Assembly (NCBI GenBank): GCA_002898795.1
Contig: BEIG01000003.1
Span: 1-63,199 of the forward strand
Origin: a bacterium HR30
GTDB lineage: Bacteria; Desulfobacterota; Binatia; HRBIN30
DNA length: 63,199 nucleotides
Direction of reading: 5' to 3'
Part shown: positions 57,775 through 63,199 of the stretch, piece by piece
How the letters are laid out: every line of letters starts with the position of its first letter
Numbering within the stretch: the stretch's first letter is position 1
Notes under the pieces: generated by a model
Seen by the model: only the letters and a program-made list of their open reading frames with translations
Told to the model about the DNA's origin: nothing
Databases searched by the model: none
Made by a program: the position numbers and the translations under genes

Positions 57775-59559
57775 TTGCTAAGGCAAGGTAAGCCCCGAAA
57801 TCACGAGCAATCAGGTCGTGGCGTCCGCCGTCAGCGCCCGGAAGAGCTGTTTCTGTTCCCGAAAAAACACTCCGGGTCACTGCGCGTTTGCCTGTTGTAC
57901 CCGAACGAATACCGCGTGGCCATGGGTAACCTCGGGTTCCACGCCGTGTACGAGATCTTCGACCAGTTCCCGGGTGTGGTTTGCGAGCGCGCGTTTCTGC
58001 CAGAGCGTGGCGAAACCTGCCGGCGTGGCGACTTGCGGTCATTCGAGACTGGCACACGTGTCCGGGAGTTCGATCTTCTTGCCTTCTCCGTGTCGTTCGA
58101 GACCGATTATTGGCACATCGCCCGCCTTCTGGATTGGGCAGGCTTGCCCTTGTGGGCTTCGGAGCGGCAAGGCTTGCCGCTGGTGATTGCTGGTGGGCCC
58201 GCCGTCTTTCTCAATCCCGAACCCATTGCGCCCTTCATGGATGCGTTTCTCATTGGCGAGGCCGAGGAGATGCTCCCGGAATTTTTAGAGGTCGTCTTCG
58301 ATTGTGGATTGCAGGACCGCGAGCGTTTCCTCCTCGAAGCGGCAAAACGGGTTGCAGGTTGTTACGTTCCGAAATTTTATCATCCTCGCTACGACGGCCC
58401 TGTGCTGGCTGCCCTGGACTACGATGGGCCGTCGGAGCCCAAGGTGCATCGCCGCATCGTCTGGAACCTGGACCAGTACCGCACCACCACGCGAGTGCTG
58501 ACCGCAGACGCGGTTTTCGGCGACATGGTGTTGGTGGAAGCAAGCCGTGGTTGCCAGTGGGGATGCCGCTTTTGCGCGGCGGGCTACATGTACCGCCCGT
58601 TACGGAATCGCTCGGTCGGTCATCTCGTCGATGCCCTGGAGGCGGGGTTAAAGCATCGCAACACGATCGGCCTTGTCGGTGCAGAGATGGCCAGTGTGCC
58701 TGGAGTGGCGCACTTGGCGAGTCTCGCGGCTCAAGCAGGAGGGAGGCTGTCGCCCTCTTCCCTCAAAGCAGACTGCGTCACCCCCGATCTTGCCCGTGCG
58801 CTGGCGGCTGGGAGGACCCAAACGGTGACCGTCGCACCGGAGGCCGGCTCCGAGCGGATGCGGCGCGTGATCAATAAAAATTTGACGGAAGACGATATCC
58901 TCCGCGCGGCCAACTTGCTGGTGGGCGAGGGAGTACCAGACCTGAAACTCTACTTCATGTTCGGCCTGCCAAAGGAAGAATGGGAGGATGTGGAGGCAAT
59001 CGGCCACTTGGTAGAGAAAATCCACACGACGTTGCGCGGCAGCGACGGTGGCCGTAGTCGTGTGGGTAAAATCACGGTGTCGGCAAATCCTTTCGTGCCA
59101 AAACCGTGGACGCCGTTTCAGTGGGAACCGATGATGGGAATTCCCCAGCTTCGGCAGCGCGCCCGGATGCTGGAGCGAATGCTGGCCAAACTTCCGGGAG
59201 TGCGGTTCGATTGTGAGTCTCCTCGGGAGGCTTTTTATCAGACCGTTCTCTCCCGAGGCGACCGACGCGTGGCGGCTTTCCTCGTTGCCGTACATCAGTC
59301 GGCCGGCGATTGGTGGGCGGTCATTCGTGCTTGGGCTCGCAAAGACTCCGGCGGTATTCCTTGGGTGGTCAACTGTCCTCCGCCGGAAGCTTACGTCTAT
59401 CGGGAATACGACGAGAACGAGCTCCTGCCGTGGGACTTCATCGATCATCACTTGAGTAAAGGCTATCTGCGAGTGGAGCGCCGCAAGGCCTACAGTGCCT
59501 TGCAAACTCCACCTTGTGACACGGCCACCTGCCGTACCTGTGGAGCATGCCCCACATGA
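57775..59559 (+). CDS. Radical SAM protein with a B12-binding-like N-domain and a C-terminal Cys4 motif (TIGR03960/YgiQ-like)
   Basis: YPNEYRVAMGNLGF, EASRGCQWGCRFC (CxxxCxxC), APEAGSERMR, FVPKPWTPFQW and terminal CDTATCRTCGAC. Start is uncertain. Confidence 0.88.
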   Translation: MLRQGKPRNHEQSGRGVRRQRPEELFLFPKKHSGSLRVCLLYPNEYRVAMGNLGFHAVYEIFDQFPGVVCERAFLPERGETCRRGDLRSFETGTRVREFDLLAFSVSFETDYWHIARLLDWAGLPLWASERQGLPLVIAGGPAVFLNPEPIAPFMDAFLIGEAEEMLPEFLEVVFDCGLQDRERFLLEAAKRVAGCYVPKFYHPRYDGPVLAALDYDGPSEPKVHRRIVWNLDQYRTTTRVLTADAVFGDMVLVEASRGCQWGCRFCAAGYMYRPLRNRSVGHLVDALEAGLKHRNTIGLVGAEMASVPGVAHLASLAAQAGGRLSPSSLKADCVTPDLARALAAGRTQTVTVAPEAGSERMRRVINKNLTEDDILRAANLLVGEGVPDLKLYFMFGLPKEEWEDVEAIGHLVEKIHTTLRGSDGGRSRVGKITVSANPFVPKPWTPFQWEPMMGIPQLRQRARMLERMLAKLPGVRFDCESPREAFYQTVLSRGDRRVAAFLVAVHQSAGDWWAVIRAWARKDSGGIPWVVNCPPPEAYVYREYDENELLPWDFIDHHLSKGYLRVERRKAYSALQTPPCDTATCRTCGACPT

Positions 59560-59927
59560 TCGTTGGAGTGGGTGCGGACGTTGCAGAGGTGAAGCGCATT
59601 GCTGCCGCGTTGTCTCACCCTACAAGGGGAGAACGCTTCCGCGCGAAGGTGTTTACCCCGACGGAGATTGCGTACTGTGAGCAACGCCGTCACGCGCCAC
59701 AGAATTACGCGGCCAGGTTTGCCGCCAAAGAAGCGACCATGAAGGCGTTAGGTTCTTTCGTTCCGTGGCGCGATGTCGAAGTGGTCCGCGATGGCCACGG
59801 TCCACCCCGGTTGCACCTTCACGGACGCGCTGCGGAGCGCGCTCGCCAGTTAGGGATCGCTCGCTGGTGGCTTACCTTGACCCACACCTCCGACCTCGCC
59901 CTGGCTTGGGTCGTTGCCGAGCGCTGA
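59556..59927 (+). CDS. acpS: Holo-ACP synthase
   Basis: MIVGVGADVAEV, FTPTEIAYC, AARFAAKEA..KALG and LTLTHT. ATGA overlap with the radical SAM gene. Confidence 0.94.
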   Translation: MIVGVGADVAEVKRIAAALSHPTRGERFRAKVFTPTEIAYCEQRRHAPQNYAARFAAKEATMKALGSFVPWRDVEVVRDGHGPPRLHLHGRAAERARQLGIARWWLTLTHTSDLALAWVVAER

Positions 59928-60233
59928 CCCGGAACCGCTGGGCACGGCTGCTTCACGCCGCCGCGTGACCAAGAGCAAGAAAACTACCGCCCAAATGCCA
60001 GTAAACAGGCCCAGGATAGTCCAAAGGTTCGCGGAGTATCCGTTGTTTCTGGCGAAGATGCGGCAGAGGATTGCGTCGATCAGATGGATGGTCACGAGCG
60101 TGGGCCAAAAATGTTCGGTGCTCAGGTGCGGCAGAAGGAACCGTAACCCTGTAGCGTAAGCAACAATGTTCTCCACGTAGTTCACAGGATTCCTGGCCGG
60201 CACCAACCTACGCGGCCGAAGCAGCGAACGCAA
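59850..60233 (-). CDS. Small hypothetical membrane protein
   Basis: Two hydrophobic segments around a 'CRIFARNNGYSANLWTILGLFTGIWAV' core. TTG start is inferred. Its 3' end overlaps acpS. Confidence 0.55.
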   Translation of the reverse strand: MRSLLRPRRLVPARNPVNYVENIVAYATGLRFLLPHLSTEHFWPTLVTIHLIDAILCRIFARNNGYSANLWTILGLFTGIWAVVFLLLVTRRREAAVPSGSGSALGNDPSQGEVGGVGQGKPPASDP

Positions 60234-60277
60234 TGACTGGTTGACCCAGAGTGCATTCTCAAGATATGCAGCGGCGC

Positions 60278-60622
60278 ATGTCGACGAAGTCACAGCGTGA
60301 AGTCAAAAGCGTTCTCGATTGGATCGTGAGCCAGGGAGAGGCAACCTTGAATCAATTGGTGGAAGAGTTGCTCCGTCGGCCTGCGGTCAGCGAGCAGATT
60401 GGCAAGGTGCTGCAACGGGCAGCCAAGACCAAGGGACGCGTCGACCGAAATGTCGAGGCCTTGTTGCACTTGCTAAATCTGCCCAGTCGGTCCGACCTGG
60501 AGAAGCTACGCACGAAATTGGACGCGCTGCAGGGCAGCTTGGTCAATCTCAACATCAAGCTCGATCGGTTGCTGGCCACCCAAGAGCAGCAGCGAGCGAA
60601 GAAAGGCGCTCCGAAAAAATAG
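60278..60622 (+). CDS. Phasin/PhaF-like coiled-coil protein
   Basis: LHLLNLPSRSDLEKLRTKLDAL resembles the LN(L/I)P(S/T)R.D motif of PHA-granule proteins. Basic C-terminal tail. Confidence 0.55.
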   Translation: MSTKSQREVKSVLDWIVSQGEATLNQLVEELLRRPAVSEQIGKVLQRAAKTKGRVDRNVEALLHLLNLPSRSDLEKLRTKLDALQGSLVNLNIKLDRLLATQEQQRAKKGAPKK

Positions 60623-60675
60623 CGCTCCTGCTTTGGAAGCACGAACAACAAGCGCGATATGTAGCCGGGGCTTGG

Positions 60676-61779
60676 TTAGGCCAAGAGGTACCGAGCCATC
60701 TCGCAGAGAGCCGAGACGGACACGGGCGGGTTGCTTTGCACGGGTATCGTGGCCAATAGAGGAAGGCCACTGCTGCGAACCAACTCCGCAAGCGCCTGAG
60801 CATCGCGTTGGCTGCGCTCGGTGAGGGCCAAGTAATTCTCCCAAAGGCGCCGCACGAAAGGATCGTCGATGTTTGGTTTGGTGCGTTGCTGGCCTCCGAA
60901 GCAATGCACCCGGTTTGCCACGACACCAGCAATCGGATAACGGCCACCTTTGAGTTCGGCGGCGAACTCTTGGGCAATGGCAAGGGTGCGAGGTTCAGGG
61001 GTGGTGACGAGGAGGAAAGCGGTGTACTCCTCGCGCAACATTTTCGATGTGCGTTCAGCACGGTCGGCAAAGCGCTGCAACATAGACTCGAACCCGCTGA
61101 CAAAGTCCGCCAAATCCCTCAGCAGGGGTAGCCCGCTCCAACGTTGCAATGCTTCCAAGAGGGCGCGAAACACGAAGCGCGTCGTCCTCGTTGGAGCATT
61201 TTCGACAAGCCGCGCGGGCGCCTGCAGGAGGCCGACAGCACGCGAAGCGAGCAAAGTAAGGAGCCGACTGGGGGCAGCCAGTAAATCACGAACGTGCGCA
61301 CTGGGGGGCGTGTCGACGATGAGAACCTCGTACGTGCCGCTGTCGACGAGGTCGTGGAGCTTTTCCATGGCCATATACTCTGCAGATCCGGCGAGTTCAC
61401 TCGATAGCTCCCGGTAGAGGCGGTTGGCAAAGATGCGTTCCGCCACCTCTTGGTTGGGAGCGAAACGTTGCACCAGCTCGTCGAACATGTGTTTCGTGTC
61501 GAGGGCAAGCGCATCGAACGAGCGAGCCGCGCCATTCAGCTGGATGCGGTGAGGTGTGTGCGAGAGACGATCGAGTCCGAGAGCGGTTTTGAGCCGCTGT
61601 GCCGGGTCGACCGTGAGCACCGCAGTTTTCCGTCCGAGTAGGGCTGCGCTTACCGCCAGAGCCGCAGCCGTGGTGGTCTTGCCAACACCGCCACATCCTA
61701 CGCAAAGGATGAGCTGCTTGGTGCGCAACAAAGAAGTGAGCGAGTTGCGTGCTGCCGTGCTGCGTTCACTAGTTGGCAT
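60676..61779 (-). CDS. ArsA/Get3-family ATPase (Rv3680-like subunit)
   Basis: Motifs VGCGGVGKTTTAAA, LTVDPAQRL, EYMAMEKL, IVDTPPS, VTTPE and VVANR. Confidence 0.9.
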   Translation of the reverse strand: MPTSERSTAARNSLTSLLRTKQLILCVGCGGVGKTTTAAALAVSAALLGRKTAVLTVDPAQRLKTALGLDRLSHTPHRIQLNGAARSFDALALDTKHMFDELVQRFAPNQEVAERIFANRLYRELSSELAGSAEYMAMEKLHDLVDSGTYEVLIVDTPPSAHVRDLLAAPSRLLTLLASRAVGLLQAPARLVENAPTRTTRFVFRALLEALQRWSGLPLLRDLADFVSGFESMLQRFADRAERTSKMLREEYTAFLLVTTPEPRTLAIAQEFAAELKGGRYPIAGVVANRVHCFGGQQRTKPNIDDPFVRRLWENYLALTERSQRDAQALAELVRSSGLPLLATIPVQSNPPVSVSALCEMARYLLA

Positions 61780-62752
61780 GGCTTTTTTTCGTCCGTGGTG
61801 CAGATAGCCATCCCGCCTCGGCGAACAGCTCTTCGAGCAGTTGCCGGCCGCAGCGGCACAACTCTTCTGCGCCCGGTATACCGGAAAAGAACTCCGGAAC
61901 GAGCGCCGGTGCTTTACCGGTGCCGCGGCGGAGGGTACGCGCATGCCGCTCGGACTCTTGCTGCATGGCGACAGCATACCGTGCTGCTTCGAACAGTGGG
62001 CCGCCGTCCTCCTGTTCCACGATTTTTTGGACCTCGCTGCGAGAAAATCTTCGGGGGAACACACGGTTGAGGATTGGGCGGCCCACCGGCAGCAAGAGCT
62101 CTTGGCGCAGAACTGCCCAGGTCTCCAACGTTTCCTCCACTGCGAGCTCTTCAGCCACGCTCACGGGGACTACCAGACATCGCTCGGGGTTGGTGAGCAA
62201 CGCTTCGAGATGGAGTGCCGAGTGCCGGAGCGGGCCGGCAATCACCAAGTTGAGCATTTGCCGAGGAACGCGAAGAAGCTTGCGCATGTGGCCAGTGGCG
62301 GGTCCATCAACGAAAACCAAGTCAAAGCGTTGGCGGCGGTGCCAAAACGAGGCGTCGACCCAAGTCGAAAGATGCTCGAGCAGCAAGAATTCCGCGATCC
62401 CCGGAGCAGCGTTGGTAAGGGCGCGAAAGCTCGCACTCTCGAGTAAACGGTTTGCGAGGAAGGGTAGTTTGAGGAGGCGCGAGAAGTAGTCGCGCACGAG
62501 ATGCTGAGGATCCACCGCCACGGCTGCTAGATGCTCGTCAATCCGCCGTGGTTTCGAGTCGAGTTTGGAGAGGTGGAACAAACCGGCCAAACTTCCGTCG
62601 GCGGCCGTTTCGACTACAAGCGTACGGTTCCCGGCTGCAGCCGACGCCAAACCAAGGGCAGCCGTGATGGTCGTCTTACCCACTCCGCCTTTGCCGGTTA
62701 TGAAAACGACGCGCCCCGCGCCCACAGCGCCAATCCTAGCTAGTGGGCCCAT
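61769..62752 (-). CDS. ArsA/Get3-family ATPase (Rv3679-like subunit)
   Basis: Motifs ITGKGGVGKTT, AAPGIAEF, VDGPATGH, EELAVEET and ILNRV. Overlaps the partner gene by 11 nt. Confidence 0.88.
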   Translation of the reverse strand: MGPLARIGAVGAGRVVFITGKGGVGKTTITAALGLASAAAGNRTLVVETAADGSLAGLFHLSKLDSKPRRIDEHLAAVAVDPQHLVRDYFSRLLKLPFLANRLLESASFRALTNAAPGIAEFLLLEHLSTWVDASFWHRRQRFDLVFVDGPATGHMRKLLRVPRQMLNLVIAGPLRHSALHLEALLTNPERCLVVPVSVAEELAVEETLETWAVLRQELLLPVGRPILNRVFPRRFSRSEVQKIVEQEDGGPLFEAARYAVAMQQESERHARTLRRGTGKAPALVPEFFSGIPGAEELCRCGRQLLEELFAEAGWLSAPRTKKSHAN

Positions 62753-62974
62753 TCAGAGCCAGCACTGCGGGGAAGTTAGAAATCGATATACCCGGAAGGG
62801 GGTGGCCGGCACGCCCCGATTGGGCACGATCGCGGTGGTTCGTTCGTCGGAGGCTTTTGGTACCGGAACAAAATGTGGCAGCACGTAACACCAGTTGGCC
62901 ACCATTTTTCCTGGGGCTGGCCGGGCTACTCTTGCAGAGCTCGAAAAAACACCGGTCCTACATTATGGGTGCGC

Positions 62975-62990
62975 TGGCGCCTGGCATGCA
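62975..62990 (+). promoter_or_regulatory. Candidate sigma54 (-24/-12) promoter for glpK
   Basis: TGGCGC-CTGGC-ATGCA has exact GG-N10-GC spacing and ends about 40 nt before the glpK ATG. Confidence 0.4.
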
Positions 62991-63029
62991 GGATGGAACC
63001 TATTGTGGTGGACTAGCAGGAGAGCAGGA

Positions 63030-63199
63030 ATGACGCGGTACATCGTAGCTATCGATCAAGGAACTACGGGGACAACCGTTTTGGTATTCGACGAAGCAGG
63101 AAAATTGCGCGGAAGAGCATACCAAGAATTCACCCAGTACTATCCCCGGCCCGGTTGGGTCGAACACGACGCGGAGGAGATTTGGCAGTCGACGCTGGC
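63030..63199 (+). CDS. glpK: Glycerol kinase, 5' fragment (runs off window)
   Basis: [46 protein letters not shown], with AGGAG RBS. Not in the ORF track. Confidence 0.9.

Follow-up and report, generated by a model that had tools for sequence, protein, structure and literature searches.

A diverged BagA/BagB-type ATPase gene pair divergent from glpK in a conserved gene block of Candidatus Binatia

Results

A pair of overlapping Get3/ArsA-fold genes next to glpK

We analyzed a contig of 63,199 nucleotides (nt) from a metagenome-assembled genome (MAG) of Candidatus Binatia (BEIG01000003.1; contig C3 of genome G000). The window, i.e., the whole stretch of DNA that was analyzed, is this entire contig. 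Close to its end, two overlapping genes coding for ATPases of the Get3/ArsA fold, here called bagA2 and bagB2, are followed on the opposite strand by the start of the glycerol kinase gene glpK. The features of this region are as follows.

61769-62752, minus strand: bagA2, bagA-like gene (gene A, type II), 327 amino acids (aa); assigned by sequence, NCBIfam, PDB and tree
60676-61779, minus strand: bagB2, bagB-like gene (gene B, type II), 367 aa from the ATG at 61779; assigned by sequence, NCBIfam, PDB and tree
61769-61779, minus strand: overlap of the bagA2 stop and the bagB2 start, 11 nt, ATGCCAACTAG
62753-63029, no strand: divergent spacer between bagA2 and glpK, 277 nt
63030-63199, plus strand: start of the glycerol kinase gene glpK, truncated where the contig ends, 59 aa visible (PRK00047, E 3.6e-20; TIGR01311, E 1.1e-16)

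The P-loop of BagA2 reads GKGGVGKT (nt 62672-62695). Its switch I position is occupied by ETAADGS (nt 62591-62611), without the catalytic Asp, where Get3/ArsA proteins read S-T-D-P-A-H-S, and its switch II is DGPATGH. In BagB2, the P-loop GCGGVGKT (nt 61675-61698) is devoid of the signature Lys, switch I is TVDPAQR (nt 61594-61614), and switch II is DTPPSAH. The 11-nt overlap implies that translation of the two genes would be coupled. Among 80 loci of other genomes, which belong mostly to Actinomycetota and in a few cases to Proteobacteria, Acidobacteriota and Myxococcota, 78 likewise have bagA before bagB.

The other neighbors of the pair in the window are ftsQAZ, a radical S-adenosylmethionine (SAM) gene, acpS, and genes for a small membrane protein and a phasin-like protein. 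No arsB, arsD or arsR gene was found among the window neighbors or in the syntenic loci examined, and the Cys residues, three in gene A and four in gene B, are not arranged as in an ArsA-type metal site. An initial annotation of this DNA had described two overlapping ArsA/Get3-fold genes, one with GKGGVGKT and ETAAD, the other with GCGGVGKT and DPA, together with the absence of ArsB/ArsD and of a metal-binding Cys cluster, and a glpK gene starting divergently 277 nt away; the coordinates and motifs above agree with it on each of these points.

The pair belongs to the BagA/BagB type at the family level

Each of the two proteins was most similar to a different subunit of BagA/BagB of Mycobacterium tuberculosis (Rv3679/Rv3680), the "bacterial Get3-like A and B" proteins of PDB entries 6BS3-6BS5. 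Gene A gave its best NCBIfam score with the BagA model NF053622 (123.6 bits, cut-off 400), versus 49.8 bits with the BagB model, and gene B with the BagB model NF053621 (255.5 bits, cut-off 521), versus 46.3 bits with the BagA model. Similarly, the closest PDB chain was 6bs3_A (Rv3679) for gene A (E 2e-22; 6e-8 for 6bs3_B) and 6bs3_B (Rv3680) for gene B (E 1.8e-53 over residues 21-293; 2e-7 for 6bs3_A). The genes also share with the mycobacterial ones their adjacent A-then-B order. As alignments to the 6BS3 chains showed, the two systems have the same motif pattern, A carrying GKGG.GK(S/T) without DPA and B carrying G(A/S/C)GGVGKT with DPA, so that the signature Lys is found only in A and the switch I Asp only in B. 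The equivalog cut-offs of NF053622 and NF053621 were reached neither by the window's proteins, which are far below them, nor in any Binatia genome scored, and the pair was thus filed as a BagAB-type homolog and not as an equivalog.

Both proteins match the Pfam family ArsA_ATPase (PF02374), and they score 84.5 and 72.1 bits with TIGR00345 (GET3/ArsA/TRC40), below its cut-off of 135 bits. We built a tree of 92 proteins with an outgroup of ten canonical proteins of TIGR00345, all of them from the same phylum. They were used after a search for a plasmid ArsA had returned only three actinobacterial bagB matches; the BagA row of one locus (L011), which an error in ORF extraction had made a duplicate of the BagB of that locus, was ignored. 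The tree split off the canonical Get3/ArsA outgroup (support 97), a BagA clade (98) and a BagB clade (99), with the window's proteins inside their respective clades and not grouped with ArsA. These data support the Rv3679/Rv3680-type identity put forward in the initial annotation, including its statement that the M. tuberculosis proteins have the same motifs, at the family level: the pair is of the BagA/BagB type and not an arsenite ArsA. It represents a known system, as yet poorly understood, in a diverged form.

Motif asymmetry predicts a single competent ATP site

We extracted 216 BagA/BagB homologs from the loci (100 BagA and 116 BagB) and counted their motifs. The signature position of the P-loop was Lys in all 100 BagA and in none of the 116 BagB, which have S (89 sequences), E (9), A (5), C (4), T (4), P (3) or G (2) instead. 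DPA was present in 114 of the 116 BagB. When canonical members were included in the alignment, every BagB and all 10 outgroup proteins had Asp in the switch I Asp column. At this column, Ala or Gly predominates in type II BagA proteins, and Glu is often retained in canonical BagA. BagA2, unlike many canonical BagA, has lost the acidic residue. The motif asymmetry is family-wide and beyond chance.

The signature Lys of deviant Walker A ATPases extends over the dimer interface to the nucleotide bound by the other subunit, and water is activated by the switch I Asp (D57 in Get3). In the window's proteins, these residues are Lys21 of BagA2 and Asp58 of BagB2. Given the alignment of the Asp column, both defects would therefore fall on the composite site of BagA. 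The BagB site would be complete, with its own Walker A Lys, its own switch I Asp and the signature Lys supplied in trans by BagA. Without the Asp and without a trans Lys, the BagA site would at most bind nucleotide. We thus infer that BagB holds the one competent ATP site and that the site of BagA is doubly degenerate, a prediction that can be checked by mutagenesis. As in Get3, the helical subdomains would move apart and together with ATP turnover at the single BagB site, and a hydrophobic or amphipathic partner could thereby be held or let go. The initial annotation had called the motif pattern a complementary degeneracy; the asymmetry is real, but the defects do not compensate for each other, both lying on the ATP site of BagA.

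Get3/TRC40, which targets tail-anchored proteins, forms homodimers whose two sites are equal and which in eukaryotes carry a CxxC zinc clasp. The window's pair has in common with it and with canonical bacterial Get3-like proteins the SIMIBI deviant Walker A fold, the composite-site dimer and the helical subdomain. In contrast with Get3/TRC40, it is a predicted heterodimer with one degenerate site, has no CxxC, scores below the TIGR00345 cut-off and belongs to a separate clade. ArsA (PDB 1F48) has the same fold and two non-equivalent nucleotide sites made by two homologous halves, but its fusion into a single polypeptide, its metalloid-binding Cys triad and its arsB/arsD partners have no counterpart in the pair.

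The genome carries a second, fabF-linked pair

A second BagAB-type pair (type I) was found in the window's genome on contig C84 (L003 633-1703 and 2-661, minus strand), in the order fabF-bagA1-bagB1. The fabF gene (L003 1687-2952) overlaps and directly precedes the pair. The C terminus of bagB1 is on contig C106 (L005 1-429), where a MaoC/mesaconyl-CoA hydratase-like gene lies beyond it. Other Binatia keep the fabF-bagA1-bagB1 order, as do a few MAGs with other labels (L059, L068, L084, L096 and L133).

Two bagB-type genes were present in all 41 genomes of the order, i.e., the window's genome and 40 relatives. With the BagB model, the type I proteins of the order, fabF-linked where examined, scored 298-357 bits, and the type II proteins mostly about 240-275 bits, a few of them lower. 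Five genomes checked had exactly four genes of the Get3/ArsA fold each, and no canonical Get3/ArsA (TIGR00345 above its cut-off) was found in the five Binatia genomes checked.

The two types have in common their family, gene order and motif asymmetry, and they co-occur throughout the order. Unlike type II, type I is closer to the actinobacterial proteins, grouping in the tree with those of Actinomycetota and other phyla in the canonical clade (support 99 for BagB and 94 for BagA), and it sits between fabF and the MaoC-like gene; type II forms a basal grade. The maximum-likelihood tree suggested that type II is an ancient paralog outside canonical BagAB. We withdrew this claim because an approximately unbiased (AU) test did not reject a tree joining the full fabF-linked clade and type II in one group (log-likelihood difference 4.0, p 0.40). 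Type II may be an old paralog or a fast-evolving Binatia duplicate, both being compatible with the test. Of the two copies that most Binatia carry, the pair in the window is the more diverged one.

The pair is part of a conserved gene block in Binatia

The type II pair lies in a block that reads, in Binatia, ftsZ - radical SAM - acpS - small membrane protein - phasin-like gene, then, convergently, bagB - bagA, and then, divergently, a PlsC-like gene - glpK. In the window, the genes between the radical SAM gene and the pair are as follows.

60251-60622, plus strand: gene for a small, helical, phasin-like protein that ends in a basic tail; converges on bagB2, 53 nt in between
59850-60293, minus strand: small membrane protein, 147 aa, no Pfam match; beside the phasin-like gene in many Binatia
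59547-59927, plus strand: acpS (holo-ACP synthase), assigned by PF01648 and synteny; within the conserved ftsZ - radical SAM - acpS block that precedes the pair

The phasin-like gene is the most constant neighbor. In nearly all type II loci examined, it is close to bagB2, mostly adjacent and convergent, and it is kept also at type II loci without glpK; the exceptions are one locus without a match (L010) and one in which it is about 6 kb away (L019). The protein scores 26.1 bits with Pfam Phasin (PF05597; gathering score 28.8) and 31 bits with TIGR01837. Its relatives share the core TKG.VDRNMQ..L.LLNLPSR.DY..L..K.E.LQGSLVNLN.KLDRLL, followed by the basic tail. When we checked it as a phasin of polyhydroxyalkanoate (PHA), no PhaC_N match was found. 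The window's genome does contain a class III PHA synthase-like gene (C47:23592-24596), which scores 251 bits with TIGR01836, below the cut-off of 365.

Outside the window's order, about 1.1 kb with a conserved gene on the glpK strand separates bagA2 from glpK. This gene belongs to the PlsC/LPLAT family (PF01553, 27.8 and 48 bits; gathering score 23), and it adjoins bagA2 divergently even where glpK is absent (L025, L130, L134 and L135). No homolog of it was found in the window's genome or in that of its congener G002, and in other genomes of the order the homolog lies elsewhere; the head-to-head glpK-bagA arrangement of the window's genus is thus most likely a derived state that followed loss of the acyltransferase gene.

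At the position expected for the catalytic His of the HX4D motif, the PlsC-like gene encodes NRS (L116-L129, e.g., L126 6857-7867, plus strand, and L123 5497-6441, minus strand). The NRS-bearing protein may be an inactive or atypical acyltransferase. The 147-aa open reading frame (ORF) overlaps the 3' end of acpS convergently by 78 nt (59850-59927), and only residues 41-128 are conserved in its relatives, so the true small membrane protein gene is probably shorter.

Extent of the linkage to glpK

The window being a whole contig, glpK is cut at its end. We found the rest of the gene on another contig of the same genome (C61:20844-22127), where it matches positions 57-493 of TIGR01311 with 599 bits, over the cut-off of 590. 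Synteny was mapped by tblastn; gene calls based on GC content at third codon positions and on the longest ORF were unreliable. In the 41 genomes of the order, the position of type II bagB relative to the top-scoring glpK was as follows.

21 genomes: separated by bagA alone
3 genomes: separated by one extra gene
5 genomes: 10-32 kb apart
1 genome: on different large contigs
11 genomes: not determinable, fragmented assembly

The linkage is therefore not unique to the window's genome, a point on which the initial annotation had made its reading depend: glpK is less than 4 kb from the type II pair in 24 of the 30 evaluable genomes of the order. In a survey of 121 Binatia genomes across the class, families f5, f93, f95, f97 and f98, and about half of f7, likewise had glpK less than 4 kb from the pair. 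The divergent arrangement persists across several orders at 37-45% BagB identity. In the class sample, glpK was present in 90 of 94 genomes with bagB versus 7 of 27 without it.

Most genomes of the order have a second glycerol-kinase-like gene (C88:4776-6209 in the window's genome). Its scores are typically 470-530 bits, short of the TIGR01311 cut-off, and in no case does it lie close to the ATPase pair. We considered glpD as the gene 3' of glpK and rejected it, the downstream gene coding for an oxidoreductase of the GMC family that uses flavin adenine dinucleotide (C61 of the window's genome; L008 6970-8586, minus strand); this gene is 90% identical in the congener G002.

Putative regulatory elements

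Candidate control elements were sought in the bagA2-glpK spacer, which is 85-281 nt long across relatives. A possible sigma54 promoter, TGGCGC-N5-ATGCA, occurs only in the window's spacer and in 0 of 17 others, and was rejected as a conserved element. A simple sigma70 scan of the window's spacer found nothing. A k-mer search for a shared operator yielded only a GTTCAAGRG-type repeat in three relatives. In these spacers (L011, L012 and L022), the GTTCAAGRG element is partly an inverted repeat and is accompanied by a TATGGTGC motif; neither occurs in the window or its congener. Downstream of the pair, we noted one element.

60622-60642, minus strand: terminator-like hairpin, then TATTTTTTCG, 34 nt past the bagB2 stop

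Terminator-like sites in the region are not above chance (5 versus 3.7 expected), and only the position of this hairpin is suggestive.

Discussion

We consider it reasonably probable that the window codes for a heterodimeric BagA/BagB-type ATPase of the Get3/ArsA fold with one working site and a membrane or glycerolipid role in the conserved Binatia block. The gene context points in this direction. Its neighbors share a glycerolipid theme, with the acyltransferase gene, glpK, acpS and the phasin-like gene at the type II copy, and fabF and a dehydratase gene at the type I copy. The likeliest partners of the ATPase would be the phasin-like protein or the PlsC-like acyltransferase. The linkage to glpK, which is moderately conserved within the class, lends no more than modest support to a glycerol or lipid role. 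In M. tuberculosis, bagAB protects from glycerol- and nitric oxide-induced toxicity, according to a passage of PMC10597346 that cites Whitaker et al. 2020; the glycerol-toxicity link on which the initial annotation had drawn was thus confirmed at second hand. BagAB is needed there for tolerance to both compounds, and the genes next to its relatives bear on the question of what the ATPase acts on. A diverged paralog with steady neighbors (the phasin-like gene, the PlsC-like gene, glpK and acpS), together with a fabF-linked copy, provides partner candidates for BagAB.

Several observations weigh against this interpretation. In the class survey, families f8, f88, f90, f91 and f92, as well as some members of f7, did not have glpK near the pair. 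Among the 80 loci from other genomes, it was within 10 kb at two Binatia type II loci only, and it was near the pair in none of more than 60 non-Binatia loci sampled, mostly from Actinomycetota. An annotated Tsukamurella locus resembles the mycobacterial ones, with genes for RidA and a metallo-beta-lactamase (MBL) hydrolase, then bagA, bagB, whiB and the gene of a penicillin-binding protein, and has no glpK within 20 kb. Few independent lineages underlie the count of genomes in which bagB and glpK co-occur. The k-mer search of the spacers yielded no motif that is conserved across the order. The Pfam Phasin match of the phasin-like protein is below threshold, and its gene does not track the PhaC-like gene, a class III PhaC-like gene being present in the window's genome, G002 and G038 but not in G027 and G267. 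Lastly, a lipid theme around bagAB in other phyla was looked for and rejected: none is common to the seven other lineages, whose neighbors comprise ParA-like/ftsZ genes, NfeD, SPFH, alpha/beta hydrolases, transporters and sensors.

The linkage to glpK is thus one lineage-specific arrangement within class Binatia and a single extra data point. The initial annotation had taken it as independent support for a glycerol or lipid role from an unrelated phylum. This part was not supported, the linkage tracing to a single event in Binatia, and it can no longer be read as broad independent evidence for a role in glycerol metabolism.

These observations lend some weight to neutral synteny, in which a BagAB-type ATPase gene pair stands beside glpK by inherited gene order, without functional coupling. 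The whole block is syntenic, including the functionally unrelated ftsZ and acpS, so the adjacency may reflect slow rearrangement and not selection. It traces to one ancestral Binatia arrangement that was broken several times, and the variable spacers without a shared motif and the lack of glpK near bagAB in the other phyla sampled fit with inheritance. Conversely, inheritance alone would have to account for a divergent arrangement that survives in several orders at such low BagB identity, for the correlated presence of bagB and glpK in the class sample, and for a glycerolipid theme among the neighbors while the other copy follows fabF. We regard neutral synteny as possible but on the whole unlikely.

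It is doubtful that the pair shares the function of mycobacterial BagAB, namely protection from the toxicity of glycerol catabolism, with the linkage to glpK as independent confirmation. Homology to BagA/BagB, the protective effect of bagAB in M. tuberculosis described in the above passage of PMC10597346, and a glpK adjacency kept in many Binatia would be in keeping with such a function. However, the window's pair is the more diverged copy (250-270 bits with the BagB model for type II versus 310-357 for the fabF-linked copy), both of its proteins are under the equivalog cut-offs, and the linkage, a single lineage event, is not seen at Actinomycetota loci. The contexts differ as well, with the phasin-like gene, acpS and glpK in the window versus RidA, the MBL hydrolase, whiB4 and ponA2 in Mycobacteriales. 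In other orders of Binatia, moreover, the immediate neighbor is an acyltransferase gene, which speaks for glycerolipid synthesis over detoxification.

The favored membrane or glycerolipid role can be cast in a more specific form, which we put forward as a long shot. Type II BagAB of Binatia might serve a glycerolipid or lipid-body pathway as dedicated, ATP-driven chaperones, with the phasin-like protein or the PlsC-like acyltransferase as the client that they bring to a membrane or to the surface of a lipid. If so, a functionally obscure ATPase family would gain a concrete client, and the glycerol sensitivity linked to mycobacterial bagAB would reflect the same role, that of channeling glycerol-3-phosphate into lipids.

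Finally, a split ArsA, i.e., the ATPase of an arsenite/antimonite pump, is highly improbable and was rejected, even though PF02374 matches both proteins and public records label homologs "anion transporter" or "ArsA family ATPase": these single-domain proteins score 37-45 bits with the ArsA model TIGR04291 (cut-off 650) and 72-85 bits with TIGR00345 (cut-off 135), the tree places them apart from the canonical members, and they have neither ars genes nearby nor an ArsA-type Cys triad.

Neighbors of bagAB outside Binatia

In Thermoleophilia/Solirubrobacterales (about 35 loci, L024-L098, e.g., L036 6302-8996), bagAB lies 1.5-2.5 kb from an ftsZ homolog on the opposite strand, with a gene for a ParA/MinD-like AAA_31 ATPase in between, which recalls the proximity of ftsZ in Binatia. 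The divergent upstream neighbor of bagA codes for an NfeD membrane protein in Acidimicrobiia and for an SPFH/Band 7 protein in Actinomadura. Loci with such upstream neighbors are the following.

L031 7713-9059, minus strand: NfeD or SPFH/Band 7 upstream-neighbor locus
L057 5919-7352, minus strand: NfeD or SPFH/Band 7 upstream-neighbor locus
L034 7565-8674, minus strand: NfeD or SPFH/Band 7 upstream-neighbor locus

The NfeD and SPFH/Band 7 families act together in membrane microdomains.

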